Of a DNA stretch of 64,000 bases, positions 3,172-21,431 are shown piece after piece; position 1 is the stretch's first letter, and the number at the start of each line of letters is the position of its first letter. The stretch is taken from assembly GCF_029227855.1 (NCBI RefSeq), contig NZ_CP074356.1; one strand, given 5' to 3'. This DNA comes from Escherichia coli. GTDB lineage: Bacteria; Pseudomonadota; Gammaproteobacteria; Enterobacterales; Enterobacteriaceae. The position numbers and the translations under genes are program-made. The notes under the pieces are model-generated. The model made no database searches and was not told where the DNA came from. It saw nothing but the letters and a program-made list of their open reading frames with translations.

Positions 3172-3191
3172 CAGGACGATACTCATCATTT

Positions 3192-3219
3192 GCCCCGGTT
3201 ATCCGGGGCTTTTTTGCAG
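3192..3219 (+). terminator. Intrinsic terminator-like hairpin between V and G
   Basis: GCCCCGG-TTAT-CCGGGGC stem followed by TTTTTT. Confidence 0.55.
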
Positions 3220-3228
3220 GTGGAGAAC

Positions 3229-3618
3229 ATGATGTTTCTGAAACAGGGCACGTTTAATTATGAAAAACAGTCCGTGGTGCTCAGTGAGCTGTCCGGGCTG
3301 CAGAGAATTGAATATCTGGCGTTTGTTCAGCAGCGAACGGCAAAGTTTGATGCCGGTGAGGGAGAACTGCCGGAGGCTGAACGACAGATTGCTTTTCTGC
3401 GGATGGGGATGGATATCAATGCCTGGCTGGTTTCCCGCTCACTGTGGAATGCGGATCAGTCTAAGGATGTAGAGACGCTTTGCGCATCCGTTATTACAAC
3501 ATGGTCGTATGATGCCCTGGGTGCGGGGGCGGAGATGGTTCTGTCGCTGAGCGGTATGGGGGCCATTGATAATGCCGGGGATGATGAGCATGAGGCGCTG
3601 ACGCCGGAAAAGTCCTGA
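3229..3618 (+). CDS. Tail assembly chaperone (lambda gpG-like)
   Basis: 129-aa ORF; GGTGGAG Shine-Dalgarno before ATG 3229; sits before the tape measure gene. Confidence 0.85.
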   Translation: MMFLKQGTFNYEKQSVVLSELSGLQRIEYLAFVQQRTAKFDAGEGELPEAERQIAFLRMGMDINAWLVSRSLWNADQSKDVETLCASVITTWSYDALGAGAEMVLSLSGMGAIDNAGDDEHEALTPEKS

Positions 3619-3956
3619 CGCGGGAAATGCAGTTTGTCATGCGGCTTGCCCGGGAGTTCCGACGGGCAGACTGGCGGCGGATGCTGTCGGAAATGTCGGC
3701 CACTGAGCTTGGTGAGTGGGGCGATTATTTCCGGATGCAGAGCTTCAGTGATGTGTGGATGGATGCGCAGTTTGCCTCGCTGAAGGCATTGATCGTGAGA
3801 ATGGTGTCCGGCAGCAGTGATGCTGCGGTGGCTGATTTCAGCCTTTTACCGGAAGAGAACGGGATACCGGAGCGAACGGACGAAGAACTGATGCATCTTG
3901 GGGAAGGTATTTCCGGAGGTGTGCGTTATGGACCAGATAGCCAACCTGGTCATTGA
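3594..3956 (+). CDS. T-frame extension of the G-T fusion chaperone (reached by -1 frameshift from G)
   Basis: The -1 frame is open from 3594 and overlaps the last 8 codons of G; candidate slip site GGAAAAG at 3606-3612. Confidence 0.65.
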   Translation, partial: GADAGKVLTREMQFVMRLAREFRRADWRRMLSEMSATELGEWGDYFRMQSFSDVWMDAQFASLKALIVRMVSGSSDAAVADFSLLPEENGIPERTDEELMHLGEGISGGVRYGPDSQPGH

Positions 3957-6900
3957 TTTGGGGATTGATGCGGCAGAGTTTAAAAATGAAATCCCCCGTA
4001 TCAAAAACCTTCTGAATGGTGCAGCCAGCGATGCAGAACGGTCTTCTGCCCGTATGCAGCGTTTTATGGAGCGTCAGACTCAGGCCGCCCGGCAGACAAC
4101 GCAGGCGGCGTCTTCGGCTGCAACAGCCGCATCCGTCCATGCGCAGACAGTGGAGAAGAACGCACAGGCTCATGAACGCATGGCCCGCGAGGTGGAGAAA
4201 ACCCGCCAGCGCATGGAGGCGCTGAGCCAGAAAATGCGCGAGGAACAGGCGCAGGCCATGGCTCTGGCGGAGGCTCAGGATAAAGCGGCTGCTGCGTTTT
4301 ATCGTCAGATTGACAGTGTGAAACAGGCCAGTGCGGGGCTGCAGGAATTACAGCGTATTCAGCAGCAGATCCGACAGGCCAGAAACAGTGGCGGGATTGG
4401 TCAGCAGGATTATCTGGCGCTGATTTCTGAGGTTACGGCGAAAACCCGTGTTCTTACACAGGCTGAGGAAGAGGCTACCCGACAGAAAGTGGCGTTTATC
4501 CGTCAGCTTAAAGAGCAGGCAACCCGCCAGAATCTTTCTTCTTCTGAGTTGCTTCGTGCTAAGGCTGCCCAGCTGGGGGTAAGCAGTGCTGCAGAAGTGT
4601 ATATCCGCAAAATGGAGCAGGCAGGAAAAGCCACGCATTCGCTGGGTCTGAAAAGTGCAGCGGCCCGTCAGGAGATAGGCGTTCTGATAGGTGAACTGGC
4701 CCGCGGAAATTTAGGTGCGCTGAGGGGATCCGGAATAACGCTGGCTAACCGTGCCGGGTGGATAGACACATTGATGTCACCGAAAGGCATGATGCTTGGC
4801 GGGGTTATTGGCGGTATTGCCGCGGCTGTCTATGGTCTGGGTAAAGCCTGGTATGACGGTCAGAAGGAGGGGGAAGAATTTAACCGCCAGCTGTCGCTGA
4901 CGGGGCATTATGCCGGAGTCACTGCCGGGCAGCTGTGGACGCTCAGTCGTGCTATTTCCGGGAATGGTATCACGCAACATGCTGCAGCCGGTGCGCTGGC
5001 TCAGGTGGTGGGTAGTGGTGCATTTCGTGGAAACGATATCGGTATGGTGGCGAGAGCTGCCGCACAGATGGAGCGATCGGTTGGCCAGTCGATCAGCGAT
5101 ACCATAAATCAGTTTAAGCGGCTGAAGGATGATCCTGTAAATGCCGCGAAGGCTCTGGACAATGAGCTGCATTTTCTTACTGCCACTCAGCTTGAGCAGA
5201 TACGTGTCCTTGGGGATCAGGGACGGTCCAGTGATGCTGCACGGATAGCCATGTCTGCACTGGCAGAGGAAACCGGTCGGCGTACTGCGGATATTGATAA
5301 TAACCTCAATGCGCTTGGTAGTACGCTGAAGTATCTGTCTGATTTGTGGAGTCGTTTCTGGGATGCGGCCATGAATATTGGTCGTGAAGACTCGCTGGAT
5401 GAACAAATTGCCGCTTTACAGGAGAAAGTGTCGCGGGCGAAAAGACTCCCCTGGACGGCATCATCTTCTCAGGTTGAATACGATCAGCAGCGTCTTAACG
5501 ATCTTCAGGAGAAAAAACGCCAGAAGGATTTGCAGGATGCAAAAGAGCAGGCAGAGCGGAATTATCAGGAGCAACAGAAACGCCGTAATGCTGAAAATGC
5601 TGCACTGAACCGGATGAATGAAACTGAAGCAGCACGGCATCAGCGTGAAATTGCGCGTATTAATGCCATGCAGTACGCCGATCAGGCTGTCAGGGATGCG
5701 GCGATACAACGTGAAAATGAACGTTACGAGAAAGCCCTGGCATCCGGTAAGAAAAAAACACGCGAAACCCGTAATGATGAGGCCACCCGGTTATTGCTGC
5801 AGTACAGTCAGCAACAGGCACAGGTGGAAGGGCAGATTGCTGCTGCAAGACAGTCAGCAGGCATTGCCACTGACAGGATGACAGAAGCGCATAAACAGCT
5901 TCTGGCTCTGCAGCAGCGCATCAGCGACCTGGACGGGAAAAAACTGACGGCAGATGAAAAGAGTGTGCTTGCCCGTAAAGATGAACTGATTCAGGCATTG
6001 ACGCTGCTGGATGTAAAACAGCAGGAGCTTCAGAAACAGACGGCACTCAACGAGCTGAAGAAAAAAACAATTCAGCTGACCAGTCAACTGGCTGAAGAAG
6101 AGCGCGCTCAGCGTCAGCAACATGACCTGGATATCGCCACGGTGGGTATGGGTGATCAGCAGCGGCAGCGATATCAGGTACAACTGAGTCTTCGCCAGAA
6201 ATACCAGCAACAGCTGGAGCAGTTGAGGCGGGATAGTGAGCGGAAAGGGACATATAACACGGATGACTACAGAAAGGCCGAGCAGGCGCTGACGGAGAGC
6301 CTGAACCGACAACTGAGTGAGAATCGCCGTTACTGGCAACAGCTTGAAATTGCTCAGGGTGACTGGAAAAACGGAGTCCTGCGTGCACTCCAGAATGTCA
6401 CTGAGAATGCGGATAACACAGCCGGGACAGTGGAACAGTTGTTCACGTCTGCGTTCAGTAGCATGAGTGACTGGCTGGCGACATTCTGTACTACAGGCAA
6501 ACTCAATTTCAAATCCTTCACCTCTTCTGTGCTGTCAGATATGTCCAGAATCATGGCTCAGATAGCTTTAATGAAAGCGGTAAAAGGCATTGCTTCCGCG
6601 CTGCCTTTTGATTTTGTAGCTAATGCTGATGGCGGTGTTTATCAGTCGGCTGATTTGAGTCGCTACAGTGGCACGGTGGTTAACCGTCCGACGTTTTTTG
6701 CTTTTGCAAAAGGCGCGGGTGTGATGGGGGAAGCTGGGCCTGAAGCCATTCTGCCACTGCGTCGTGGTGCTGACGGTAAGCTGGGGGTTGTGGCGGATAT
6801 TGGTGGTTCAGGTATGGCGATGTTTGCCCCGCAGTACAACATCGAGATCAATAACGATGGCACGAACGGGCAGATAGGTCCGGCTGCCCTGAAGGTGGTT

Positions 6901-6984
6901 TATGACCTTGGGAAAAAAGCGGCAGCGGACTTTATGCAACAGCAGGCCCGTGATGGTGGTCGGTTAAGTGGAGCATATCGGTAA
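3928..6984 (+). CDS. Tail tape measure protein (lambda gpH-like)
   Basis: 1018 aa, coiled-coil rich; N-terminus (MDQIANLVIDLGIDAA) and C-terminus (NNDGTNGQIGPAALKVVYD) match recalled lambda H; GGAGGTG Shine-Dalgarno before 3928. Confidence 0.9.
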   Translation: MDQIANLVIDLGIDAAEFKNEIPRIKNLLNGAASDAERSSARMQRFMERQTQAARQTTQAASSAATAASVHAQTVEKNAQAHERMAREVEKTRQRMEALSQKMREEQAQAMALAEAQDKAAAAFYRQIDSVKQASAGLQELQRIQQQIRQARNSGGIGQQDYLALISEVTAKTRVLTQAEEEATRQKVAFIRQLKEQATRQNLSSSELLRAKAAQLGVSSAAEVYIRKMEQAGKATHSLGLKSAAARQEIGVLIGELARGNLGALRGSGITLANRAGWIDTLMSPKGMMLGGVIGGIAAAVYGLGKAWYDGQKEGEEFNRQLSLTGHYAGVTAGQLWTLSRAISGNGITQHAAAGALAQVVGSGAFRGNDIGMVARAAAQMERSVGQSISDTINQFKRLKDDPVNAAKALDNELHFLTATQLEQIRVLGDQGRSSDAARIAMSALAEETGRRTADIDNNLNALGSTLKYLSDLWSRFWDAAMNIGREDSLDEQIAALQEKVSRAKRLPWTASSSQVEYDQQRLNDLQEKKRQKDLQDAKEQAERNYQEQQKRRNAENAALNRMNETEAARHQREIARINAMQYADQAVRDAAIQRENERYEKALASGKKKTRETRNDEATRLLLQYSQQQAQVEGQIAAARQSAGIATDRMTEAHKQLLALQQRISDLDGKKLTADEKSVLARKDELIQALTLLDVKQQELQKQTALNELKKKTIQLTSQLAEEERAQRQQHDLDIATVGMGDQQRQRYQVQLSLRQKYQQQLEQLRRDSERKGTYNTDDYRKAEQALTESLNRQLSENRRYWQQLEIAQGDWKNGVLRALQNVTENADNTAGTVEQLFTSAFSSMSDWLATFCTTGKLNFKSFTSSVLSDMSRIMAQIALMKAVKGIASALPFDFVANADGGVYQSADLSRYSGTVVNRPTFFAFAKGAGVMGEAGPEAILPLRRGADGKLGVVADIGGSGMAMFAPQYNIEINNDGTNGQIGPAALKVVYDLGKKAAADFMQQQARDGGRLSGAYR

Positions 6985-7313
6985 TGGAGACGTTTCACTG
7001 GAAAGTGCGCCCGGATATGAATGTGGTATCAGAGCCGAAAGTGGTGACAGTGAAGCTGGGCGATGGTTATGAACAGCGTCGTGCGGCGGGACTGAATAAC
7101 CAGTTGTCGACTTACAGCGTGACGATACGTGTTCGTAAATGTGAACACCCATCTTTAAAAGCCTTTCTGGAACGGCACGGTGGCGTCCGCGCATTTCAGT
7201 GGACGCCACCTTATGACTGGAAGCCGATCAGGGTGGTTTGTCGTAAATGGTCGGCAAGCGTGGGGGCGCTGTGGGTAACCATAACGGCAGATTTTGAACA
7301 GGTCGTGGCATAG
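6984..7313 (+). CDS. Minor tail protein (lambda gpM-like)
   Basis: 109 aa, same length as lambda M; start overlaps the H stop. Confidence 0.9.
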   Translation: METFHWKVRPDMNVVSEPKVVTVKLGDGYEQRRAAGLNNQLSTYSVTIRVRKCEHPSLKAFLERHGGVRAFQWTPPYDWKPIRVVCRKWSASVGALWVTITADFEQVVA

Positions 7314-7322
7314 GAGGCCCTG

Positions 7323-8021
7323 ATGCAGGATATTCCACAGGAAACACATCATGAGACGACACGCCTTACTCAGTCAGCCCAGGTGGTGCTCTGGGAAATC
7401 GATCTGACAGAGGTCGGTGGTGAACGTTATTTTTTCTGTAATGAGCAGAACGAAAAAGGTGAGCCGGTCACCTGGCAGGGGCGGCAGTATCAGGTATACC
7501 CTATTCAGGGGACGGGATTTGAACTGAACGGTAAGGGTAGTGCTGCCCGTCCGACACTGACGGTCTCTAACCTGCACGGCATGGTCACCGGGATGGTGGA
7601 AGACCTGCAGAGTCTGGTCGGCGGAACGGTGGTCAGGCGTAAGGTTTACGCCCGTTTTCTGGATGCGGTGAACTTCGTCAACGGAAACAGCGACGCCGAT
7701 CCGGAGCAGGAGGTGATCAGCCGCTGGCGCATCGAGCAGTGCAGCGAACTGAGTGCGGTCAGTGCCTCCTTTGTGCTCTCCACACCGACGGAAACGGATG
7801 GTGCTGTTTTTCCGGGGCGCATCATGCTGGCCAACACCTGCACCTGGACCTATCGCGGTGATGAGTGCGGTTATCATGGTCCGGCTGTCGCGGATGAATA
7901 TGACCAGCCGACGTCCGATATCACGAAGGATAAATGCAGCAAATGCCTGAGCGGCTGTAAGTTTCGCAATAACGTCGGCAACTTTGGCGGCTTCCTTTCC
8001 ATTAACAAACTTTCGCAGTAA
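7323..8021 (+). CDS. Minor tail protein (lambda gpL-like)
   Basis: 232 aa, same length as lambda L; Cys-rich C-terminus. Confidence 0.9.
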   Translation: MQDIPQETHHETTRLTQSAQVVLWEIDLTEVGGERYFFCNEQNEKGEPVTWQGRQYQVYPIQGTGFELNGKGSAARPTLTVSNLHGMVTGMVEDLQSLVGGTVVRRKVYARFLDAVNFVNGNSDADPEQEVISRWRIEQCSELSAVSASFVLSTPTETDGAVFPGRIMLANTCTWTYRGDECGYHGPAVADEYDQPTSDITKDKCSKCLSGCKFRNNVGNFGGFLSINKLSQ

Positions 8022-9368: not shown

Positions 9369-12300
9369 ATGGGTAAAGGCAGCAGTAAGGGGCATACCCC
9401 GCGCGAAGCGAAGGACAACCTGAAGTCCACGCAGCTGCTGAGTGTGATCGATGCCATCAGCGAAGGGCCGGTTGAAGGTCCGGTGGATGGATTAAAAAGC
9501 GTGCTGCTGAACAGTACGCCGGTGCTGGACAGTGAGGGGAATACCAATATATCCGGCGTCACGGTGGTGTTCCGGGCCGGTGAGCAGGAGCAGACTCCGC
9601 CGGAGGGATTTGAATCCTCCGGTTCCGAGACGGTGCTGGGTACGGAAGTGAAATATGACACGCCGATCACCCGCACCATCACGTCGGCAAACATCGACCG
9701 TCTGCGCTTTACCTTCGGTGTGCAGGCACTGGTGGAAACCACCTCAAAGGGGGACAGGAATCCATCGGAAGTCCGCCTGCTGGTTCAGATACAACGTAAC
9801 GGTGGCTGGGTGACGGAAAAAGACATCACCATTAAGGGTAAAACCACCTCGCAGTATCTGGCCTCAGTGGTGGTGGATAACCTGCCGCCGCGCCCGTTTA
9901 ATATCCGGATGCGCAGGATGACGCCGGACAGCACCACAGACCAGCTGCAGAACAAAACGCTCTGGTCGTCATACACCGAAATCATCGATGTGAAACAGTG
10001 CTACCCGAACACGGCACTGGTCGGCGTGCAGGTGGACTCGGAGCAGTTCGGCAGCCAGCAGGTGAGCCGTAATTATCATCTGCGAGGGCGTATTCTGCAG
10101 GTGCCGTCGAACTATAACCCGCAGACGCGGCAATACAGCGGTATCTGGGACGGGACGTTTAAACCGGCATACAGCAACAACATGGCCTGGTGTCTGTGGG
10201 ATATGCTGACCCATCCGCGCTACGGCATGGGGAAGCGTCTCGGTGCGGCGGATGTGGACAAATGGGCGCTGTATGTCATCGGCCAGAATTGCGACCAGTC
10301 GGTGCCGGATGGCTTTGGTGGCACGGAGCCGCGCATCACCTGTAATGCCTGGCTGACCACGCAGCGCAAGGCGTGGGATGTGCTCAGTGATTTCTGCTCG
10401 GCGATGCGCTGTATGCCGGTATGGAACGGGCAGACGCTGACGTTCGTGCAGGACCGGCCATCGGATAAGGTGTGGACCTATAACCGCAGTAATGTGGTGA
10501 TGCCGGATGATGGCGCGCCGTTCCGCTACAGCTTCAGCGCCCTGAAGGACCGTCATAATGCCGTTGAGGTGAACTGGATTGACCCGAATAACGGCTGGGA
10601 GACGGCGACAGAGCTTGTGGAGGACACGCAGGCCATTGCCCGTTACGGTCGTAACGTCACGAAGATGGATGCCTTTGGCTGTACCAGCCGGGGGCAGGCA
10701 CACCGCGCCGGGCTGTGGCTGATTAAAACAGAACTGCTGGAAACGCAGACCGTGGATTTCAGCGTCGGCGCAGAAGGGCTTCGCCATGTACCGGGCGATG
10801 TTATTGAAATCTGTGATGATGACTATGCCGGTATCAGCACCGGTGGTCGTGTGCTGGCGGTGAACAGCCAGACCCGGACGCTGACGCTCGACCGTGAAAT
10901 CACGCTGCCATCCTCCGGTACCACGCTGATAAGCCTGGTTGACGGAAGTGGCAATCCGGTCAGCGTGGAGGTTCAGTCCGTCACCGACGGCGTGAAGGTA
11001 AAAGTGAGCCGTGTTCCTGACGGTGTTGCTGAATACAGCGTATGGGGGCTGAAGCTGCCGACGCTGCGCCAGCGACTGTTCCGCTGCGTGAGTATCCGTG
11101 AGAACGACGACGGCACGTATGCCATCACCGCCGTGCAGCATGTGCCGGAAAAAGAGGCCATCGTGGATAACGGGGCGCACTTTGACGGCGAACAGAGTGG
11201 CACGGTGAATGGTGTCACGCCGCCAGCGGTGCAGCACCTGACCGCAGAAGTCACTGCAGACAGCGGGGAATATCAGGTGCTGGCGCGCTGGGATACGCCG
11301 AAGGTGGTGAAGGGTGTGAGCTTTATGCTTCGCCTGACCGTGGCAGCGGATGACGGCAGTGAGCGGCTGGTCAGCACGGCCCGGACGACGGAAACCACAT
11401 ACCGCTTCAGGCAGCTGGCGCTGGGAAGCTACAGGCTGACAGTCCGGGCGGCAAATGCCTGGGGGCAGCAGGGCGATCCTGCATCGGTATCGTTCCGGAT
11501 TGCCGCACCGGCAGCGCCGTCGCGGATTGAGCTGACGCCGGGCTATTTTCAGATAACCGCCACGCCCCATCTTGCCGTTTATGATCCGACGGTACAGTTT
11601 GAGTTCTGGTTCTCGGAAAAGCGGATTGCGGATATCAGGCAGGTTGAAACTACAGCCCGCTATCTTGGCACGGCGCTGTACTGGATAGCTGCCAGTATCA
11701 ATATCAAACCGGGCCATGATTATTATTTTTACATCCGCAGTGTGAACACCGTTGGCAAATCGGCATTTGTGGAGGCTGTTGGCCAGCCGAGTGATGATGC
11801 ATCCGGCTATCTGGATTTTTTCAAAGGCGAGATAGGGAAAAGCCATCTGGCTCAGGAGCTGTGGACGCAGATTGATAACGGTCAGCTTGCGCCTGACCTG
11901 GCTGAAATCAGGACGTCCATTACGGATGTCAGCAATGAAATCACGCAGACCGTCAATAAGAAACTGGAAGACCAGAGTGCGGCAATCCAGCAGATACAGA
12001 AGGTTCAGGTTGATACAAATAATAACCTGAACAGCATGTGGGCTGTGAAGCTGCAGCAGATGCAGGACGGACGCCTTTATATCGCGGGTATTGGTGCCGG
12101 TATTGAGAATACCCCTGACGGTATGCAGAGTCAGGTGCTGCTGGCGGCGGACAGGATTGCGATGATTAATCCTGCGAATGGCAACACAAAACCGATGTTT
12201 GTTGGTCAGGGCGATCAGATATTCATGAACGAAGTGTTCCTGAAATATCTGACGGCTCCCACCATTACCAGCGGCGGTAATCCTCCGGCATTTTCCCTGA

Positions 12301-12848
12301 CACCGGACGGGCGGCTGACGGCGAAAAATGCCGATATTAGCGGTAACGTGAATGCGAACTCCGGGACGCTCAACAACGTCACGATTAACGAGAACTGCCG
12401 GGTTCTGGGAAAACTGTCCGCGAACCAGATTGAAGGCGATCTCGTTAAAACAGTGGGCAAAGCTTTCCCCCGGGACTCCCGTGCACCGGAACGGTGGCCA
12501 TCAGGGACCATTACCGTCAGGGTTTATGACGATCAGCCGTTTGACCGGCAGATTGTTATTCCGGCGGTGGCATTCAGCGGCGCTAAACATGAGAGAGAGC
12601 ATACTGATATTTACTCCTCATGCCGTCTGATAGTGCGGAAAAACGGTGCTGAAATTTATAACCGTACCGCGCTGGATAATACGCTGATTTACAGTGGCGT
12701 TATTGATATGCCTGCCGGTCACGGTCACATGACGCTGGAGTTTTCGGTGTCAGCATGGCTGGTAAATGACTGGTATCCCACAGCAAGTATCAGCGATCTG
12801 CTGGTTGTGGTGATGAAGAAAGCCACCGCAGGCATCAGTATCAGCTGA
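9369..12848 (+). CDS. Host specificity / central tail fibre protein (lambda gpJ-like)
   Basis: 1159 aa; the first ~800 aa match recalled lambda J closely; the C-terminal ~300 aa differ. Confidence 0.95.
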
Positions 12849-13569: not shown

Positions 13570-14272
13570 TGCACAGAAAACCCCCAGCTAGGCTGGGGGT
13601 TCCGGAAAGCTTTCAGCTTTGAGCCAGTTATTAAAACCCCTTTTGATTTGTTAAAACACTTTGCGGTCTGGCAACTGCAAGTGTCAAACAAGAAATCAAA
13701 AGGGGGTCCCAATGGGGAACGAAAAGAGCTTAGCGCACACCCGATGGAACTGTAAATATCACATAGTTTTTGCGCCAAAATACCGAAGACAGGTGTTCTA
13801 CAGAGAGAAGCGTAGAGCAATAGGCAGTATTTTGAGAAAGCTGTGTGAGTGGAAAAGCGTACGGATTCTGGAAGCTGAATGCTGTGCAGATCATATCCAT
13901 ATGCTTGTGGAGATCCCGCCCAAAATGAGCGTATCCGGGTTTATGGGATATCTGAAAGGGAAAAGCAGTCTGATGCTTTACGAGCAGTTTGGTGATTTGA
14001 AATTCAAATACAGGAACAGGGAGTTCTGGTGCAGAGGGTACTACGTCGATACAGTGGGTAAGAACACGGCGAAGATACAGGATTACATAAAGCACCAGCT
14101 TGAAGAGGATAAAATGGGAGAGCAGTTATCGATTCCCTATCCGGGCAGCCCGTTTACGGGCCGTAAGTAACGAAGTTGGATGCAAATGTCAGATCGTGTG
14201 CGCCTGTTAGGGCGCGGCTGGTAAGAGAGCCTTATAGGCGCATTTGAAAAACCTCCGGCTATGCCGGAGGAT
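13568..14272 (+). mobile_element. IS200-type insertion sequence (IS200/IS605 family); boundaries approximate
   Basis: About 0.7 kb, a single Y1 transposase gene, left-end hairpin AAAACCCCCAGC-TAG-GCTGGGGGTT and a second stem-loop over the tnpA ribosome binding site. Confidence 0.65.
13712..14170 (+). CDS. tnpA: IS200-type transposase TnpA (HuH Y1 transposase)
   Basis: 152 aa with an HxH-type motif (HIHMLVEI) and the usual IS200 TnpA length. Confidence 0.85.
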   Translation: MGNEKSLAHTRWNCKYHIVFAPKYRRQVFYREKRRAIGSILRKLCEWKSVRILEAECCADHIHMLVEIPPKMSVSGFMGYLKGKSSLMLYEQFGDLKFKYRNREFWCRGYYVDTVGKNTAKIQDYIKHQLEEDKMGEQLSIPYPGSPFTGRK

Positions 14273-14290
14273 ATTTATTGTGGAGTGGAT

Positions 14291-16696
14291 ATGGCAGCAG
14301 TAAAAATCTCAGGTGTGCTGAAAGATGGTGCGGGAAAACCAATACAGAACTGCACTATTCAACTGAAGGCAAAGCGTAACAGCACCACGGTACTGGTGAA
14401 CACGGTGGCTTCTGAAAATCCGGATGAAGCCGGACGTTACAGCATGGATGTTGAGTATGGCCAGTACAGCGTCACCCTGCTGGTTGAAGGTTTTCCGCCT
14501 TCACATGCCGGGACCATTACCGTCTATGAAGGCTCCAGACCAGGTACGCTGAATGATTTTCTCGGTGCCATGACGGAAGATGATGTCATGCCGGAGGCAT
14601 TGCGTCGTTTTGAGGCAATGGTGGAAGAAGTGGCACGCAACGCCGAAGCCGCCTCTCAGAGCGCAGCGGCGGCAAAGAAATCCGAAACTGCAGCGGCATC
14701 ATCAAAGAACGCGGCGAAAACCTCAGAAACGAATGCAGCTAATAGTGCACAGGCGGCAGCGACCTCAAAGACTGCATCGGCAAACTCCGCGACAGCAGCC
14801 AAAAAATCAGAAACCAACGCGAAAAATAGCGAGACAGCCGCAAAGACGAGCGAAACCAACGCAAAGTCCAGCCAGACGGCAGCGAAAACCAGCGAAACGA
14901 ATGCCAAAGCCAGTGAAACTGCGGCAAAAAACAGCCAGGTTGCAGCAGCCCAAAGCGAGAGCGCGGCAGCCGGTTCTGCGACTTCAGCAGCTGGATCAGC
15001 AACTGCTGCGGCTAACAGCCAGAAAGCTGCGAAGACGAGTGAAACTAACGCAAAGTCCAGCCAGACGGCAGCGAAGACCAGCGAAACGAATGCCAAAGCC
15101 AGTGAAACTGCGGCGAAAAGCAGTCAGGATGCAGCGGCCCAAAGCGAGAGTGCCGCAGCCAGTTCTGCAAGCGCGGCGGCTGCTTCTGCCACTGCATCAG
15201 CCAACAGTCAAAAAGCAGCAAAAACCAGTGAAACCAACGCAAAGGCGAGCGAGACTGCGGCGGCGAACTCGGCGCAAGCATCGGCAGCAAGCCAGACAGC
15301 AGCTAAAGCAAGTGAAGACGCAGCCAGAGAGTATGCAAGCCAGGCAGCGGAGCCGTATAAATATGTCTTACAGCCACTGCCTGATGTGTGGATACCGTTT
15401 AACGATTCACTGGATATGATTACGGGCTTTTCGCCATCATATAAAAAAATTGTTATTGGCGACGATGAAATAACAATGCCTGGCGACAAGATTGTAAAGT
15501 TTAAACGCGCATCGAAAGCAACTTACATTAATAAATCTGGTGTGCTGACAGAGGCTGCCATTGACGAGCCACGATTTGAACGTGATGGCCTGCTTATTGA
15601 GGGGCAAAGAACTAACCTGCTAATCAATTCAACAAATCCGACTAAATGGAACAAGTCGTCAAATATGATCTTAAGTGCATCAGGTGTAGATGATTTCGGA
15701 TTCCAGTACGCAAAATTTACATTAAAACCAGAAATGGTAGGGCAAATTTCAGCGATTAACATAGTAACCGTTTCCGGCAGTAAAGGTTTTGATGTAACAG
15801 GCGGAGAAAAGTATGTAACCATATCATGCAGGGTGCAAAGTGGCACTCCAAATTTAAGATGCCGATTACGATTTGAAAACTATGATGGTTCTACCTACAC
15901 ATTCTTAGGTGACGCTTACTTAAATACGACAGATTTATCTATTGATAAGACGGGTGGTGCCGCTAATCGCATTACTGCAAGGGCTGTTAAAGATGAAGCA
16001 AGCAAATGGATCTTTTTTGAGGCGACAATTAAGGCACTTGATACAGAAAATATGATAGGTGGAATGGTTCAGTATGCCCCGGCAAAAGGAGTGGGCACTG
16101 GCGCGGATGATTATATTTATATTGCGACCCCTCAAGTTGAAGGTGGGGCGTGCGCTTCATCGTTTATTATAACAGGCGCATCCCCTGTAACACGCGCCAG
16201 CGATATTGTAACGGTCCCCATTTCTCTAAATTGGTGCAATCCCGCTATTAGTTCATTAGCAGAAGTTAATACCAATTGGGATGAATCGCCAAACAAAGAA
16301 GGTAGCGCACGTATTCTTAATATTTCCACTACGGGAGATACAACTGAAATTGCAGATGAAAGTTATATGTATTTGGGGTATACATCTTTGGGAGCACGCG
16401 CAATCATTACAAATGGTAAAGGCACTAAAATAGAATATAAAAGCGTTATAGAACGACCAGAGAGAAAAAGCATTATCGGCTTTAGATTCACAGAAAGTCG
16501 AGAATTGTGTGTTGTGGTTAACGGTAATATTGGTGCTAAGGTGGTTTCTCCTTATAAAAAACACAAATATACAGGAGGCTTCATTAATATTGGTGGTCAA
16601 TCATCATCCGGCAACCGTCACCTATTTGGACACGTTCGAAATCTGCGTATTTGGCACAAGGCATTGACTGATGCTCAGATGGGGGAGTCAATCTAA
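14291..16696 (+). CDS. stf: Side tail fibre protein: lambda Stf-like N-terminus, Ala/Ser/Thr-rich repeats, divergent C-terminus with LamG/concanavalin-like domain
   Basis: The first ~130 aa match recalled lambda Stf (MAVKISGVLKDG..QNCTIQLKAKRNSTT); the C-terminal region is AT-rich and ends in a LamG-type motif (NLRIWHKALTDAQM). Confidence 0.9.
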   Translation: MAAVKISGVLKDGAGKPIQNCTIQLKAKRNSTTVLVNTVASENPDEAGRYSMDVEYGQYSVTLLVEGFPPSHAGTITVYEGSRPGTLNDFLGAMTEDDVMPEALRRFEAMVEEVARNAEAASQSAAAAKKSETAAASSKNAAKTSETNAANSAQAAATSKTASANSATAAKKSETNAKNSETAAKTSETNAKSSQTAAKTSETNAKASETAAKNSQVAAAQSESAAAGSATSAAGSATAAANSQKAAKTSETNAKSSQTAAKTSETNAKASETAAKSSQDAAAQSESAAASSASAAAASATASANSQKAAKTSETNAKASETAAANSAQASAASQTAAKASEDAAREYASQAAEPYKYVLQPLPDVWIPFNDSLDMITGFSPSYKKIVIGDDEITMPGDKIVKFKRASKATYINKSGVLTEAAIDEPRFERDGLLIEGQRTNLLINSTNPTKWNKSSNMILSASGVDDFGFQYAKFTLKPEMVGQISAINIVTVSGSKGFDVTGGEKYVTISCRVQSGTPNLRCRLRFENYDGSTYTFLGDAYLNTTDLSIDKTGGAANRITARAVKDEASKWIFFEATIKALDTENMIGGMVQYAPAKGVGTGADDYIYIATPQVEGGACASSFIITGASPVTRASDIVTVPISLNWCNPAISSLAEVNTNWDESPNKEGSARILNISTTGDTTEIADESYMYLGYTSLGARAIITNGKGTKIEYKSVIERPERKSIIGFRFTESRELCVVVNGNIGAKVVSPYKKHKYTGGFINIGGQSSSGNRHLFGHVRNLRIWHKALTDAQMGESI
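14837..15214 (+). repeat. In-frame tandem duplication, 2 x 189 bp (63 aa each), inside stf
   Basis: Two near-identical 63-aa units (AAKTSETNAKSSQTAAKTSETNAKASETAAK...ANSQK) within a wider 9-aa periodic region. Confidence 0.8.
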
Positions 16697-16977
16697 TGAA
16701 AGATTTAACACTCAAATTTGCCGACAGGGCCGATTTTTCGGCCTTTATGGGAAGTATTGGCTATTATAATGACGAGTCGATGCAGGATGATATTCTGATT
16801 GATGTGATAGGTAACGTGTACAAAGAAACCGGAGAGCTGACTGAAGATGGCGAACCGGTATGTGTTAAGGAAGATGGATATTTTGTAAACGTGCGCATCA
16901 TTAAGGATACGCAAATATCGTCATTATTCGATGAATACGCGGTTGCTGTTGAGCATCAACTTCGTGGCTGGATGTGA
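16696..16977 (+). CDS. Hypothetical small acidic protein, translationally coupled to stf
   Basis: 93-aa ORF whose ATG overlaps the stf stop (TAATG); AT-rich; no family recognised. Confidence 0.5.
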   Translation: MKDLTLKFADRADFSAFMGSIGYYNDESMQDDILIDVIGNVYKETGELTEDGEPVCVKEDGYFVNVRIIKDTQISSLFDEYAVAVEHQLRGWM

Positions 16978-16986
16978 GGTAGAGAA

Positions 16987-17691
16987 ATGGCTACATCAAC
17001 AGTAATTCCGGGAGACATCACCACGCTGAAGGGAGATGTTAGTAAAGCAAAGGAAGATATTTCCTCTATTAACGGAAAAGTATCAACGCTTCAGACTGAT
17101 ATGGCCAGTGCAAAGCAGGATATCAGCACCAGATACACAAAAACTGAAGTTGATAATAAGCTGAAAAACAAAGTGGAAGTGAACGATCTGGAAAGTGGTC
17201 GTTATGGCGGAGATTTTTACCCGCTGACTGGCCGTGAAGCGTTTTATTTATGGGGATTGGGCACAACTACAGCGGCGGCAAATCTTTATCTTAATCCTGA
17301 CCCTGCAATTTCGTCTGTGCTGCGGTCAACATCGTCTATCCGCTATAAACATTCAGTAGAGACGATAGATTCAGAGCACGCCGATCTCATTTTCAGGATG
17401 CGCCCTGTGTGGTACAGGTCGCAATGCGAAAATGACAGGCGTGACTGGGGATTCTATGGATTGATTGCCGAGGAAGTTGGAGAAATTGCCCCTCAGTTTG
17501 TTCACTGGCGACCAGCCAACGAAGATGATGCACCGGAAACCATTTCCAGCAATGGCCTTGTTGCCGAAGGTGTAATGTACGAACGTCTGGTTGTTCCACT
17601 GATTCACCATATCCAGAAGCTGACTGAAAGAGTTGATGAACTTGAGTCAGAATTAAAGTTGTTATCCGTTTCCCGAAGCGATATCGGATAA
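16987..17691 (+). CDS. Short fibre-like protein: N-terminal coiled coil plus C-terminal intramolecular-chaperone (Peptidase S74-like) domain
   Basis: 234 aa; heptad-like N-terminus; C-terminal region has S-x-x-R-x-K (SSIRYKH), RPVWYR and GLIAEEV motifs resembling endosialidase chaperone domains. Confidence 0.55.
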   Translation: MATSTVIPGDITTLKGDVSKAKEDISSINGKVSTLQTDMASAKQDISTRYTKTEVDNKLKNKVEVNDLESGRYGGDFYPLTGREAFYLWGLGTTTAAANLYLNPDPAISSVLRSTSSIRYKHSVETIDSEHADLIFRMRPVWYRSQCENDRRDWGFYGLIAEEVGEIAPQFVHWRPANEDDAPETISSNGLVAEGVMYERLVVPLIHHIQKLTERVDELESELKLLSVSRSDIG

Positions 17692-17701
17692 AGGAGGCGT
17701 A

Positions 17702-17995
17702 ATGGATATAACACCTTTCCTTCATGCACTTTGTGCTGTGGCTGCGCAGGTACTGGTTGGTCTTTTTACCGGAAACTGGGCTTACGGGGCGATAGCTGGT
17801 TGTACGTTCTTCATTGCGCGTGAACATACCCAGGCAGAATATCGCTGGATTGAAATGTTCGGGCATGGCAAGCGTATGAATATGCCGTGGTGGGGCGGTT
17901 TTGATCCGCGTGCGTGGGATGTGGCAAGCCTGATGGATTTTGCTGTGCCGGTGGTGGCGTGTCTGCTGGTCTGGCTGTTGGTTAATCGTGGGTGA
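17702..17995 (+). CDS. Hypothetical small membrane protein (2-3 predicted TM segments)
   Basis: 97-aa ORF with hydrophobic stretches; GGAGG Shine-Dalgarno upstream. Confidence 0.45.
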   Translation: MDITPFLHALCAVAAQVLVGLFTGNWAYGAIAGCTFFIAREHTQAEYRWIEMFGHGKRMNMPWWGGFDPRAWDVASLMDFAVPVVACLLVWLLVNRG

Positions 17996-18005
17996 AAAAA
18001 GGTGA

Positions 18006-18125
18006 GCTGTATATGCAACGGAGGAAGAAACCTCGTTGCGGGAAGCCTTGAAGAAGTATCGGGTGTTGCTGAACCGTGTTGATACGTCAACTGCACAGGA
18101 TATTGAATGGCCAGCACTGCCGTAG
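18006..18125 (+). pseudogene. tfa: Tail fibre assembly (Tfa) gene remnant: only the conserved C-terminal ~39 codons
   Basis: Translation [29 protein letters not shown] matches the conserved Tfa C-terminus; the frame closes at a stop just upstream at 18003-18005. Confidence 0.55.
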
Positions 18126-18222
18126 GGTAAAACATATAAATTCTATAATTAGATGTATCTTTCCATTTACGGCAAGGAAGGGGGCTTGGAAGACGTAAGG
18201 CATCTCACACCGAGATTATTTT

Positions 18223-18813
18223 TTATATGTCAGGTGTCTGAAGTTTTGCTTTGGCTCTTAAAATGGTTTGCCGCGAGGTTTTGAATTCCCGGGCAATGGC
18301 ACTTATACTTACACCTGACTTAATCCGTTCGAATACCACCTGTTTCTGTTCTTCATTTAACACAGGTGGTCGACCAAAACGTTTCCCTGCGCCCCGGGCT
18401 CTTACTATCCCGGAATGAGTGCGTTCAAGTAAAAGGTCTCGTTCAAATTCAGCGACTGCTGAAATTACTTGCATCATCATTTTTCCTGTTGGACTGGTCA
18501 GGTCAATGCCCCCCAATGCTAAGCAATGCACTCTGATACCTGTTTCGGTCAGTTGTTCCACTGTTTTCCTGATATCCATTGCATTACAACCAAGGCGATC
18601 CAGTTTTGTCACAATCAATTGATCACCACATTTCAGGCGAGCAAGCAACCGGTTAAAACCAGGACGCTCACTGGTTGCTGCTGAGCCGCTAATGTGTTCT
18701 TCGATTATTTGCTGAGGTTTGATTTTAAAACCTGCACTTTCGATTTCCCGGCGTTGATTTTCGGTGGTCTGATCCAGCGTTGATATCCGACAGTAAGCAA
18801 AAATTCGAGACAT
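18223..18813 (-). CDS. pinQ: Serine recombinase / DNA invertase (PinQ/PinR-like)
   Basis: 196 aa; N-terminal catalytic region (YCRISTLDQ) and C-terminal helix-turn-helix; convergent with the tfa remnant, next to ydfK. Confidence 0.85.
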
Positions 18814-19129
18814 AGTGAGACTCTATACGAAATTGGTGTTCATATCATAATGCATCTCAGAAAATAATTTTGATTATTTTTTTGCATGTTTGTATGTACA
18901 CGTTCGAAAATAAACGAATGCGTATGCAACCCCGTAATTTTGGTGAGACCCAAAATCGATTTTGTGAAAAATGGCTTTAACTCGGTTTGTTTTTCGAGTT
19001 CCGGGCGGACTCAAGGAAGAAGAATAGTGTTGCGTGTTATTTTAACCAGATTTCAAGTTGTTTGGTCGTGGAAAAGTGGAGCAAAATGTTGTTAAAGTGG
19101 AAAAATGATAAAAAAGTAAGTTTATTATA

Positions 19130-20147: not shown

Positions 20148-21431
20148 ATGGATTTCCAGTTATATTCGCTCGGCGCAGCGTTAGTGTTTCATGAAATATT
20201 TTTTCCTGAATCATCAACGGCAATGGCGTTAATTCTGGCAATGGGAACCTACGGTGCAGGTTATGTGGCGCGTATTGTCGGAGCATTTATTTTCGGCAAA
20301 ATGGGCGACAGAATCGGGCGTAAAAAAGTGCTCTTTATTACCATCACCATGATGGGGATCTGTACCACCTTAATTGGTGTGCTGCCGACCTATGCACAAA
20401 TTGGTGTGTTTGCGCCAATTTTGCTGGTGACGCTGCGTATTATTCAGGGGCTGGGGGCAGGCGCGGAAATTTCCGGTGCCGGCACGATGCTGGCGGAATA
20501 TGCACCAAAAGGTAAGCGCGGAATTATCTCCTCATTTGTTGCTATGGGGACTAACTGCGGAACCTTGAGCGCAACGGCAATCTGGGCCTTTATGTTCTTC
20601 ATTCTCAGTAAAGAGGAACTGCTGGCGTGGGGATGGCGTATACCGTTCCTGGCGAGCGTTGTCGTGATGGTCTTTGCTATCTGGTTGCGTATGAATCTGA
20701 AAGAAAGCCCGGTCTTTGAGAAGGTTAACGACAGCAACCAACCGACAGCAAAACCTGCACCTGCTGGTAGCATGTTCCAGAGCAAATCCTTCTGGCTGGC
20801 AACAGGGCTGCGTTTTGGTCAGGCTGGTAACTCCGGTTTAATTCAGACTTTCCTTGCAGGCTATTTAGTGCAGACGTTATTGTTTAACAAAGCAATTCCA
20901 ACAGATGCATTGATGATCAGTTCGATTCTCGGCTTTATGACCATTCCGTTCCTTGGTTGGTTATCCGATAAAATTGGTCGCCGGATCCCGTATATTATTA
21001 TGAATACCTCTGCGATTGTGCTGGCGTGGCCAATGCTTTCTATCATCGTAGATAAAAGCTATGCCCCGAGCACCATTATGGTTGCACTGATTGTGATTCA
21101 TAACTGTGCGGTGCTGGGATTATTTGCTCTGGAAAACATTACCATGGCAGAAATGTTCGGCTGTAAAAACCGCTTTACCCGGATGGCTATTTCTAAAGAA
21201 ATTGGTGGTCTTATCGCTTCCGGTTTTGGTCCTATCCTGGCGGGTATTTTCTGCACCATGACGGAATCCTGGTATCCGATCGCCATTATGATCATGGCAT
21301 ATTCAGTGATTGGTTTAATCTCTGCGCTGAAAATGCCAGAAGTGAAAGACCGTGATTTAAGTGCGCTGGAAGACGCTGCGGAAGATCAACCGCGTGTTGT
21401 CAGAGCTGCGCAACCTTCCAGAAGTCTTTAA
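20148..21431 (+). CDS. ydfJ: MFS metabolite:H+ symporter YdfJ, N-terminally truncated at the prophage junction
   Basis: Frame opens right after a TGA at 20142-20144 and starts within the first transmembrane region, so about 20-30 N-terminal residues are missing. Confidence 0.8.
   Translation: MDFQLYSLGAALVFHEIFFPESSTAMALILAMGTYGAGYVARIVGAFIFGKMGDRIGRKKVLFITITMMGICTTLIGVLPTYAQIGVFAPILLVTLRIIQGLGAGAEISGAGTMLAEYAPKGKRGIISSFVAMGTNCGTLSATAIWAFMFFILSKEELLAWGWRIPFLASVVVMVFAIWLRMNLKESPVFEKVNDSNQPTAKPAPAGSMFQSKSFWLATGLRFGQAGNSGLIQTFLAGYLVQTLLFNKAIPTDALMISSILGFMTIPFLGWLSDKIGRRIPYIIMNTSAIVLAWPMLSIIVDKSYAPSTIMVALIVIHNCAVLGLFALENITMAEMFGCKNRFTRMAISKEIGGLIASGFGPILAGIFCTMTESWYPIAIMIMAYSVIGLISALKMPEVKDRDLSALEDAAEDQPRVVRAAQPSRSL

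Follow-up and report, generated by a model that had tools for sequence, protein, structure and literature searches.

In an Escherichia coli prophage, within the 64,000-nucleotide stretch of DNA analysed here (the window), the 3′ half of the side-tail-fibre gene stf, ORF93 and ORF234 probably make up a mobile two-part side-tail-fibre module, from which ORF97, the last gene of the series, stands apart. An earlier note on this DNA had read the three small ORFs as a single unit of moron, exclusion or defence cargo. For ORF93 and ORF234 this failed, as both belong to a fibre module common to many well-studied virulent coliphages and are therefore not cargo, while ORF97 stays a candidate by position and distribution. 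ORF97, a very conserved small membrane protein, is truly uncharacterised and the one gene worth experiment; the remaining module is ordinary and already present in well-studied coliphages.

Table 1. Coordinates (positions in the window) of the fibre locus and its neighbours.
Feature	Position	Strand	Remarks
stf, side tail fibre	14261–16696	+	811-aa ORF; RefSeq start at 14291
stf C-terminal module	15392–16696	+	residues 378–811, 40.8% GC
ORF93	16696–16977	+	93 aa
ORF234	16987–17691	+	234 aa
ORF234, predicted mature part	16987–17331	+	residues 1–115: putative docking motif, coiled coil, small distal tip
ORF234, putative C-terminal intramolecular chaperone	17332–17691	+	Peptidase_S74, residues 116–234
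ORF97	17702–17995	+	97 aa
tfa 3′ remnant	18009–18125	+	39 codons
pinQ-type serine invertase	18223–18813	−	context only, outside the module

The three co-oriented ORFs were recovered exactly as the earlier note had described them, in the place where lambda-type phages carry tfa, and an identical prophage carries these three CDSs in its RefSeq annotation (Table 1). Together with stf they form a tightly packed and coupled operon structure: the stop codon of stf and the start codon of ORF93 overlap (TAATG), ORF93 being translated by coupling to stf, and the ORF93–ORF234 and ORF234–ORF97 gaps measure 9 and 10 nt, with a ribosome-binding site in each. Neither promoter-like nor terminator-like sites were seen between the module genes, nor a promoter-like site upstream of ORF97. 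All three are real genes under purifying selection, with median pairwise dN/dS values against other alleles of 0.23 for ORF93 (36 alleles), 0.10 for ORF234 (24 alleles) and 0.13 for ORF97 (65 alleles). The label 'AT-rich' cassette had to be dropped. GC content was 41.8% in ORF93, 45.5% in ORF234 and 53.1% in ORF97, against 49.0% in the window, and clear AT-richness is confined to ORF93 and the stf 3′ half. The low-GC tract begins within stf, at about codon 378 (GC drops at about 15400), so the exchanged unit starts upstream of 16696; the residue-378 boundary is its true 5′ end. Its right-hand scar is the tfa 3′ remnant that had been recognized earlier, an open frame ending in …EWPALP and a stop codon, which RefSeq annotates as 'tail fiber assembly protein, incomplete, missing N-terminus'. 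The pin invertase beyond it (named pinQ by RefSeq, with serine-recombinase matches) is now an orphan: a search for gix/pix-like sites between 14000 and 19000 found none, and no crossover sites or inverted alternative fibre segment were found. The ancestral 3′ end of stf and the greater part of tfa would have given way to a mobile module, with this scar and the orphan invertase as what remains.

Stf begins with an N-terminal anchor of lambda type, continues in a shaft of Ala-rich repeats and ends in a receptor-binding module; it matches phrog_1419 ('tail protein', E 0) over residues 12–811. Residues 123–811 align with bas32_0022 (Gp22), the proximal lateral fibre of phage IrisVonRoten (45% identity, E 4e-180), residues 445–646 match NF048003 GTA_spike_fiber (E 1.9e-16), the fibre matches Rcc01080 (PDB 6tb9, E 4.9e-5), and the extreme C-terminus gives a weak Laminin_G_3 match (i-E 0.0026). 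No S74 domain appeared among the PHROG, NCBIfam and Pfam matches. Stf would have retained the lambda-type anchor and shaft and acquired a new end, a lectin-like module akin to the RcGTA head-spike fibre, whose tip is a putative ConA/galectin-like domain. Judging from these similarities, the module most likely binds surface polysaccharide. Among prophage alleles, StfC identity ranges from 35% to 100%.

ORF93 is acidic (pI 4.2; 19 D+E versus 8 K+R), as previously noted. The profile and structure searches proposed in the earlier note led from ORF234 to fibre proteins and from ORF93 and ORF97 to PHROG families without assigned function (phrog_1361, E 3e-44, and phrog_1443, E 3.5e-59, respectively). 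The statement that the 93- and 97-aa proteins belong to no family thus stood for Pfam, NCBIfam (Tfa families included for ORF93) and PADLOC but not for PHROG. The fold of ORF93, a small alpha+beta protein, matches no known fold. It shares 38% identity with IrisVonRoten Gp23 (E 3e-25), and the suggested survey of genes downstream of stf in related prophages showed an ORF93-family gene directly after a StfC-family fibre in 79 of 79 intact E. coli prophage loci, which supports a link to the fibre. ORF93 is the dedicated and obligate partner of the stf C-terminal module, presumably as an assembly factor or accessory subunit. It is most likely the fibre's assembly partner in place of Tfa, acting as a folding or trimerisation factor, and less likely a stoichiometric adaptor that stays on the fibre. 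Because the phage 21 and ev243 types have it without any second fibre, ORF93 cannot be an adaptor only, which leaves the chaperone role by elimination.

ORF234 shows clear homology to tail-fibre proteins in its PHROG, Pfam and PDB matches and, as far as sequence tells, is a short distal fibre with a putative LtfB-like docking N-terminus, a coiled coil and a Peptidase_S74 chaperone. Its N-terminal motif (MATSTVIPGDITTLK) follows the pattern M-[AV]-T-x-T-x-I-P-x-D-I-x-x-L-K, present in nine of nine second fibres compared and common to those of Tritos, tunus, PeterMerian, JenP2, KarlBarth, phC11 and IrisVonRoten (Gp24); virulent Drexlerviridae carry full-length homologues of 48–54% identity. The coiled coil (matches include P22 gp26, PDB 4lin) and chaperone domain that the earlier note had proposed were both borne out, residues 116–172 matching Pfam PF13884 (Peptidase_S74, E 2.2e-5). 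Within this part, which is 94–100% conserved among prophages, S116-S-I-R119-Y-K121 fits the S-x-x-R-x-K dyad pattern, and the S74 region matches residues 952–1068 of PDB 8hqz chain d, a 1076-aa 'L-shaped tail fiber assembly' protein (whole-sequence E 1.2e-7). From the homology and motifs we infer that the conserved N-terminal peptide would dock on the proximal fibre complex, and that the coiled coil would trimerise, helped by the C-terminal chaperone. The latter may then cut itself off at Ser116 (Ser116/Lys121 dyad), leaving a trimeric 115-residue tip. The outcome would be a two-part or branched fibre, comparable with LtfA/LtfB of DT57C and Gp22/Gp24 of IrisVonRoten. BASEL gives the PeterMerian equivalent of ORF234 a competing annotation, 'putative lateral tail fiber chaperone'.

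In the cultured temperate phages PhiR49_1 and Tritos the genes again run stf, ORF93, fibre, ORF97, and 2G7b, HannyBb and IdasGreatGrand match over this stretch; in phage 21, Lambda_4C10 and ev243, stf is followed by a 92-aa protein and then a 97-aa protein. The virulent phages KarlBarth, phC11, tunus, JenP2, PeterMerian and IrisVonRoten likewise combine a lateral fibre with an ORF93 homologue and a second fibre. The fibre set spans virulent T1-like, T5-like, Dhillonvirus and Nonagvirus phages, with the ORF93 and ORF234 homologues always directly after the lateral fibre gene. The earlier note had held that clear homology of all three genes to fibre assembly components, with conserved synteny in characterised phages, would speak against its reading; ORF93 and ORF234 show most of this.

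ORF97 is hydrophobic (GRAVY +0.52) with three predicted helices, in keeping with the membrane protein described earlier. It is predicted to be a three-helix inner-membrane protein and is not predicted to be a virion component. Foldseek with its AF2 model (pLDDT 97.8) found its own family and no other fold match, and Pfam has no family for any of 82 members, one of them giving a holin score of E 3.6e-3. The family ('Ybl63') comprises 583 homologues (437 representatives at 50% identity), in which E41, W72 and P83 are invariant and each of H8, R40, Q44, A45 and E46 is kept in 95% or more of the sequences, yielding a conserved RE..QAE motif. ORF97 is present in 1870 of 5426 complete E. coli genomes (about a third) and is 93–100% identical across E. 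coli prophage loci while StfC varies over the range given above; identity between E. coli and Comamonas or Aeromonas is about 55–64%.

In temperate phages across Proteobacteria, ORF97 lies at the end of tail-fibre or tailspike modules. In a P22-like phage the homologue sits between the tailspike gene and int, in the P2-like phage phiHAP-1 it follows tfa, and in Comamonas, Pantoea, Chelativorans, Silvania and Desulfovibrio it comes behind fibre or spike genes; the upstream gene is a StfC-family fibre in 79 of 80 E. coli loci and also in Comamonas, Pantoea and Chelativorans. ORF97 adjoins the fibre module in five of five temperate and none of seven virulent phages (Fisher p 0.0013), the virulent comparison being a profile search of the fetched stretch around the fibre genes only. 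Partial copies occur in virulent phages, some homologues are chromosomal copies outside prophages, and in some phages the homologue adjoins holin, endolysin or spanin genes. ORF97 would lie outside the fibre, as a co-transcribed membrane protein of the temperate module versions that is not found beside virulent ones. It is plausibly the sole remaining candidate for an accessory or exclusion function, by position and distribution and without homology.

That all three genes are non-structural cargo (moron, exclusion or anti-phage defence) in a hotspot between the fibre genes and the prophage end is highly improbable. Morons are known from this position, ORF93 and ORF97 lack an assigned function in databases, and ORF97 sits in the conversion-gene slot of one P22-like and one P2-like phage; however, PHROG, Pfam and PDB matches mark ORF234 as a tail-fibre protein, translation of ORF93 is coupled to that of stf, no protein matched the PADLOC defence-system models, and the ORF93 and ORF234 homologues keep their place directly after the lateral fibre gene in strictly virulent phages, which have no cargo for lysogeny. 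For these two genes the cargo reading is largely refuted. We also regard it as unlikely that ORF234, instead of being a fibre, is a chaperone acting in trans, whose S74 domain would serve the trimerisation of Stf, with ORF93 as a structural cap or adaptor. The BASEL label, a mature part of just 115 residues, an S74 part conserved while StfC varies, and a Stf with neither an S74 domain nor Tfa would all suit such a role, but the same N-terminal motif occurs on long second fibres (574–586 aa) in the same gene position, and Stf of this type is assembled in the phage 21 and ev243 types, which have no ORF234-like gene. To our knowledge, the S74 chaperones described so far (endosialidase, T5 pb1) act within their own chain and are then cleaved off, which also counts against action in trans.

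For ORF97, our best and tentative guess is that it serves exclusion or conversion at the level of the envelope, through a host target that is conserved; its own conservation counts against this, as known exclusion proteins tend to evolve rapidly. A role in lysis, as holin, antiholin or lysis-timing regulator, is rather doubtful. ORF97 is a small membrane protein within a late operon, in Comamonas, Acidovorax and Pantoea prophages its homologue immediately precedes holin, endolysin or spanin genes, and that of Aeromonas phage 62AhydR11PP has an SLT-like gene and genes for membrane proteins around it and is encoded on the other strand from the fibre gene. Yet lambdoid, P22-like and P2-like phages carry it well away from the lysis cassette, the Comamonas, Acidovorax and Pantoea prophages already have separate holin candidates, the single Pfam holin score mentioned above is no match, and a conserved polar motif with invariant residues is atypical for holins. 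Similarly doubtful is a tie to this fibre type, for example by masking or altering the polysaccharide bound by the lectin-like Stf and so protecting lysogens or released progeny. The recurrent StfC-family fibre upstream and the temperate-only distribution fit this, but ORF97 shows no co-variation with the Stf receptor-binding domain, also follows unrelated types (P22-like tailspike, P2-like fibre and Tfa, others), has chromosomal copies outside prophages and, at 97 residues, is too small for known glycan-modifying enzymes.

Among known systems, Cor, T5 Llp, HK97 gp15 and the proteins of the P22 gtrABC and P2 Z/fun slots resemble ORF97 in position, small size, membrane location and temperate restriction only, no sequence or fold similarity to them being found; its cross-genus conservation is far above that of all these proteins. 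With lambda-type Stf and Tfa (Pin/Gin-type invertible segments), the locus shares the Stf anchor and shaft, the chromosomal position, and the retained tfa 3′ remnant and pin-family invertase, but it lacks a functional Tfa. The C-terminus of ORF234 resembles the endosialidase/T5 pb1 chaperone (Peptidase_S74, PF13884), which acts in its own chain and is then cleaved off (PMC4728585), in the Pfam match, the Ser…Lys dyad and its place at the end of a coiled-coil fibre; it differs in the motif (SSIRYK versus the usual SDxRxK) and in an unusually short predicted mature fibre. Stf residues about 415–656 are homologous to the RcGTA head spike fibre Rcc01080, a lectin-like, capsule-binding protein whose short N-terminal peptide attaches it to a small partner protein (PMC7296036, PMC10218006). 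In the L-shaped fibres of DT57C and DT571/2, LtfB is joined to the virion via LtfA (PMC4728585, PMC10713586), so that there too a second fibre is borne on the proximal fibre through its own N-terminus, and Peptidase_S74 chaperone domains are present in both systems. The evidence for attachment in DT57C is genetic, with weak cryo-EM density besides; LtfA, unlike Stf, carries an S74 domain itself, and no ORF93-like gene is described (PMC4728585, PMC10713586). The DT571/2 ltfAB record matches the phC11 second-fibre query over residues 27–66 only, the first 26 residues (docking motif) lying outside the match. In IrisVonRoten (Bas32, Tequintavirus), gene order and families are the same as here (bas32_0022/0023/0024; Gp22-Gp23-Gp24). 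This phage is virulent and its stretch lacks ORF97, the anchor is of T5-Ltf type instead of lambda-Stf type, and the distal fibre is a T-shaped protein of 574 aa with two receptor-binding domains, compared with the predicted 115-residue mature stub here. A proximal fibre with a lectin/galectin-like C-terminus is followed by a 92-aa protein, given no role in the BASEL 2025 paper (PMC11990801), and by a distal fibre with the same N-terminal motif and a C-terminal intramolecular chaperone; this distal fibre, Gp24, has been modelled as attached to Gp22, whose C-terminus holds a galectin-like domain (PMC11990801).

Of the three genes that the earlier note described as an AT-rich cassette in place of tfa and took for possible cargo, at most one can be cargo: ORF93 and ORF234 go with a fibre module, a two-part structure of a known kind that they probably form together with the C-terminus of the side tail fibre Stf, while ORF93 and ORF97 are real, conserved families. 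Defence cargo, one of the possibilities raised by the position, finds no support, none of the three ORFs matching PADLOC-DB models at E ≤ 1. All were re-found at the positions first reported for them, in a lambdoid prophage that occupies the E. coli Qin site. A prophage identical over this stretch is present in many complete genomes, where NCBI names ORF93 and ORF97 'hypothetical protein' and ORF234 'tail fiber domain-containing protein'. The stf stop codon overlaps the ORF93 start (TAATG); ORF93 and ORF234 are 9 nt apart, ORF234 and ORF97 10 nt, with a ribosome-binding site for either gap. Consensus scans detected no promoter-like site on the coding strand in 16000–18280, nor upstream of ORF97, and no terminator-like site between the genes. 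Because of this close packing and the lack of such sites, stf and the three ORFs are read as a single late transcription unit. All three small genes are maintained as proteins, given their low median pairwise dN/dS against other alleles (ORF93, 0.23; ORF234, 0.10; ORF97, 0.13).

Coordinates of features in the window and in the loci fetched for comparison (L-numbers).
Feature	Record	Position	Strand	Remark
J	window	9369–12848		followed by lom, then IS200-family tnpA
Hairpins	window	13637–13705 and 14252–14270		flank the IS200/IS605 transposase gene
IS200/IS605-family transposase gene	window	13661–14170	+	NF033573, E 3e-43; between lom and stf
stf	window	14261–16696	+	5′ of ORF93, ORF234 and ORF97
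stf shaft repeats	window	14700–15260		
ORF93	window	16696–16977	+	93 aa
ORF234	window	16987–17691	+	234 aa
ORF97	window	17702–17995	+	97 aa
tfa 3′ remnant	window	18009–18125	+	directly follows ORF97 in the gene order
pinQ	window	18223–18813	−	orphan invertase
ydfK	window			between pinQ and ydfJ
ydfJ, truncated	window	20148–21431		RefSeq: 'incomplete, missing N-terminus'
ydfI	window			follows ydfJ
IS66-type element	Lambda_4C10 (L003)	3139–5555		three 'mobile element' genes
SLT-like gene	62AhydR11PP (L007)	2499–2996		
SLT-like gene	Comamonas (L008/L120)	6970–7521		
ORF97-like ORF	HC6 (L144)	3501–3659		unannotated, ~53 codons

The description 'AT-rich' holds for ORF93 (41.8% GC) and for stf from about codon 378 (40.8%) but not for ORF97, which at 53.1% lies above the window mean of 49.0%; ORF234 has 45.5%. 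Since the low-GC tract sets in inside stf near codon 378 and extends over ORF93, the exchanged unit starts within stf, upstream of the start drawn in the earlier note. All that is left of tfa is a remnant of 39 codons, as first counted. No gix/pix-like crossover site was found near the fibre genes (14000–19000; five pattern matches window-wide against 3.8 expected), and neither an inverted alternative fibre segment nor a convincing inverted repeat was detected around pinQ in the same interval. The tfa remnant and an invertase lacking crossover sites point to an ancestral Stf/Tfa segment, possibly invertible, which recombination spanning from inside stf to inside tfa would have overwritten.

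Other features of the locus were also recorded. The 5′ end of ydfJ was lost to the prophage insertion, which confirms the Qin-type attachment site. The IS200/IS605 transposase gene is missing from the reference prophage of strain CFSAN061763, an identical match to the window across the fibre region, in which 64 nt separate lom from stf; the insertion might alter read-through into stf. The stf shaft contains 21-nt-periodic repeats rich in Ala, Ser, Thr and Glu, including a 189-nt duplication at 83% identity, and probably varies in length.

Judged by its sequence, Stf is a proximal fibre of the type found in the Tequintavirus IrisVonRoten (Bas32), with residues 123–811 sharing 45% identity with bas32_0022 (E 4e-180). 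In its C-terminal module (StfC, residues 378–811), NCBIfam detects the 'GTA head spike fiber' domain (E 1.9e-16), and among PDB sequences the module matches the RcGTA fibre Rcc01080 (6tb9, E 4.9e-5), a protein that binds capsule polysaccharide (PMC10218006); the extreme C-terminus weakly matches the ConA-like Laminin_G_3 domain. Among 80 E. coli prophage loci StfC identity ranges from 35 to 100%, a spread in keeping with a receptor-binding domain. Stf proteins of this type have no S74 domain and no Tfa.

Homologues of ORF93, an acidic protein (pI 4.2) as first described, were detected by tblastn in 181 phage records, and every annotated record among the matches listed had a tail or tail-fibre gene under the match. 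Carriers include phage 21, lambda-like gut phages and the virulent Dhillonvirus, Warwickvirus, Nonagvirus and Tequintavirus, with a partial match in rV5-like phages. ORF93 shares 38% identity with bas32_0023, the small gene between Gp22 and Gp24 of IrisVonRoten, which the BASEL paper does not discuss (PMC11990801). A StfC-family fibre was followed by an ORF93-family gene in 79 of the 80 prophage loci, the exception being disrupted by IS1, so that linkage in intact loci is 79/79; where tblastn gave no match, the family is represented by a divergent protein of 89 aa (MRDITLRF...RTWA). This allele class occurs in 984 of 5,426 complete E. coli genomes. As ORF93 is found both with and without a second fibre (a fibre gene 3′ of the ORF93 homologue), it is tied primarily to Stf. 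No match was obtained in Pfam (even at E ≤ 10) or NCBIfam, nor with the family profile against PDB sequences, and the only PHROG matches were to families 1361 and 18574, both of unknown function. ORF93 is thus not a Tfa member by sequence (Pfam, NCBIfam, PHROG 'tail fiber assembly'), but it is Tfa-like by position, lying directly 3′ of, and being co-inherited with, the receptor-binding C-terminus of the fibre. A 188-aa neighbour in Comamonas was considered as a relative on the sole support of phrog_18574; direct comparison by hhalign was negative (probability 0.4%), and the link is held unproven. In the cultured lambda-like phage Lambda_4C10, isolated as a plaque former, an IS66-type element lies between stf and the homologues of ORF93 and ORF97 and so breaks the stf–ORF93 coupling.

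ORF234 combines a short tail fibre with a chaperone predicted to cleave itself off. Its PHROG matches are the last 240 of the 1385 positions of the fibre-like phrog_3299 and a dozen 'tail fiber' families. Residues 116–172 match Peptidase_S74 (PF13884, E 2.2e-5, model positions 1–57 of 58), and S116-S-I-R119-Y-K121 fits the S-x-x-R-x-K pattern of the Ser/Lys dyad, which reads SSSRYK in the second fibres of tunus and PeterMerian and SDARVK / SDSRLK in those of phC11 and IrisVonRoten. Cleavage at Ser116 would leave a mature protein of 115 residues comprising an N-terminal peptide, a coiled coil and a small tip. This coiled coil matches trimeric coiled coils, e.g. that of P22 gp26, and the mature part has full-length homologues (48–54% identity) in the virulent Drexlerviridae tunus, swan01, SECphi27 and PeterMerian. 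The N-terminal motif M-[AV]-T-x-T-x-I-P-x-D-I-x-x-L-K occurs in all nine second fibres compared, from temperate and virulent phages alike (ORF234, PhiR49_1, Tritos (346 aa), tunus, PeterMerian, JenP2, KarlBarth, phC11 (586 aa) and IrisVonRoten Gp24 (574 aa)), each of them encoded 3′ of an ORF93 homologue, and identifies ORF234 as a distal fibre with predicted docking.

If the fibre module is accepted, ORF234 is likely to be its docked distal fibre, a role that accords with the shared N-terminus. A chaperone acting in trans we consider very unlikely. The S74 assignment is supported by the best PDB sequence match of ORF234, to residues 952–1068 of 8hqz_d, a 1076-aa chain named 'L-shaped tail fiber assembly' of which these residues are the chaperone end. 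For ORF93, a folding or trimerisation factor or a retained small subunit is the most economical role, since the Stf it accompanies lacks both S74 and Tfa. Within the module we lean towards a chaperone, on the strength of linkage rather than homology; an adaptor retained on the fibre, to which the same linkage applies, has a lesser though real chance of being correct.

The ORF97 family comprises 583 close and 437 more distant representatives, none of which has a Pfam family; its sole name is 'Ybl63', which we found mentioned in no paper. ORF97 itself had no match in Pfam, NCBIfam or PADLOC, nor did its profile against PDB sequences. The AF2 model (pLDDT 97.8) has helices at 4–23, 26–53 and 74–96, and Foldseek searches of AFDB50 with it returned only the own family, a few matches bearing automatic DUF names. 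Three residues (E41, W72 and P83) do not vary among 82 diverse members, and five others (H8, R40, Q44, A45 and E46) are kept in ≥ 95%; such conservation is unusual for a 97-residue membrane protein and hints at a specific site on one face of the membrane. Of 5426 complete E. coli genomes, 1870 carry the gene (median two copies per carrier), and its conservation extends to Comamonas and Sphingomonas.

Homologues of ORF97 lie 3′ of stf or of the second fibre in lambdoid phages, between tailspike and int in the P22-like Gally, between tfa and the sheath gene in the P2-like phiHAP-1, 3′ of StfC-family fibres in Comamonas, Pantoea and Chelativorans, and 3′ of other fibre or spike types in Silvania, Comamonas sp. 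and Desulfovibrio. Several prophages of Pantoea and of beta-proteobacteria have lysis genes (holin, endolysin or spanin) next in order, and in Aeromonas phage 62AhydR11PP the homologue sits amid an SLT-like gene and membrane-protein genes. This SLT-like gene belongs to an unannotated family (motif GLQES; phrog_3108, 'unknown function') that recurs near the ORF97 homologue of an unrelated phage in Comamonas; its neighbours are membrane proteins in both and, in Comamonas, an Rz-like spanin too, and the family probably represents endolysins that have escaped recognition. Chromosomal copies occur in Aeromonas spp. (L009, L106–L109, L113), in Sphingomonas and in an unclassified Pseudomonadota MAG (L138 and L140, directly 3′ of ligA); those of A. 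rivipollensis (L009) and Sphingomonas lie outside prophages, the former between pirin and RIO1 genes, near two LpxL-like genes. Such copies hint at a cellular function borrowed by phages. The ORF in Escherichia phage HC6, directly 3′ of the gene for an 859-aa protein and with no integrase within the fetched stretch, matches ORF97 residues 41–93 (43% identity), a match that recurs in ST1UNAM, ZCEC08 and HC8A; this ORF represents either a truncated member of the family or the scar of a recombination event. In two IMG/VR E. coli prophages (L039 and L080) a further gene whose N-terminal domain is of the side-tail-fibre type lies ~540–1580 nt 3′ of the ORF97 homologue; these prophages may encode a tandem pair of Stf-type fibres.

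Among the fetched fibre loci with an ORF93 module, a profile search detected ORF97 in 5/5 temperate versus 0/7 virulent carriers (Fisher p 0.0013), and a scan of viral contigs for relatives returned near-identical E. coli prophages only. This temperate-only distribution and the conversion-slot position lend indirect support to a non-structural, lysogeny-linked envelope function, i.e. exclusion or conversion, which we propose tentatively. Control of lysis timing, to which adjacency to lysis genes in some distant prophages would point, is unlikely: no lysis gene adjoins ORF97 in the window, and the family yields no Pfam holin match except in one of 82 members (E 3.6e-3). Masking of the receptor of the neighbouring fibre, which overlaps with exclusion or conversion and agrees with the position of ORF97, is similarly improbable; ORF97 remains 93–100% identical where the adjacent receptor-binding domain varies widely, and hence is not tuned to fibre specificity. 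A broader joint reading, which we hold to be doubtful, would make ORF97 a new, very widespread phage-borne inner-membrane family whose conserved target lies in the envelope and which serves either in exclusion or conversion, as a generic factor, or as a tiny membrane enzyme. ORF93 would then be a fibre assembly factor of a new class, having taken the place of Tfa for lectin-tipped fibres. On this reading, the three-helix ORF97 would carry its near-invariant cluster of His8, Arg40-Glu41 and Gln44-Ala45-Glu46 at one membrane face and would travel at the end of receptor-binding modules in the sipho-, podo- and myoviruses of four proteobacterial classes (alpha, beta, gamma and delta).

The trio of stf, small-protein and short-fibre genes should be annotated as one receptor-binding module and not as hypothetical cargo. 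This has consequences for host-range prediction in prophages and for fibre swaps in engineered lambda-type particles, where ORF93 rather than Tfa is probably required by a chimeric Stf of this type; one preprint on lambda-vector fibre engineering makes no mention of chaperone or accessory genes. ORF93 and ORF97 add two compact families with confidently predicted folds, of which ORF97 stands out for its abundance and breadth. It is the one of the three genes that merits experiment, and can be tested cheaply in trans against a phage panel.

The Cor cassette, in which exclusion proteins adjoin receptor-binding genes (PMC13164509), is a precedent for the position of ORF97 only. In the T5-like DT57C, genetics and cryo-EM indicate that LtfA holds LtfB on the virion (PMC4728585, PMC10713586), and ORF234 shares the LtfB-like arrangement, its gene lying downstream of a proximal fibre gene within one operon. 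In the IrisVonRoten model of the BASEL authors, Gp24 is attached to the proximal fibre Gp22, with a galectin-like domain at the Gp22 end (PMC11990801); Gp22, Gp23 and Gp24 of this phage are the counterparts of Stf, ORF93 and ORF234.
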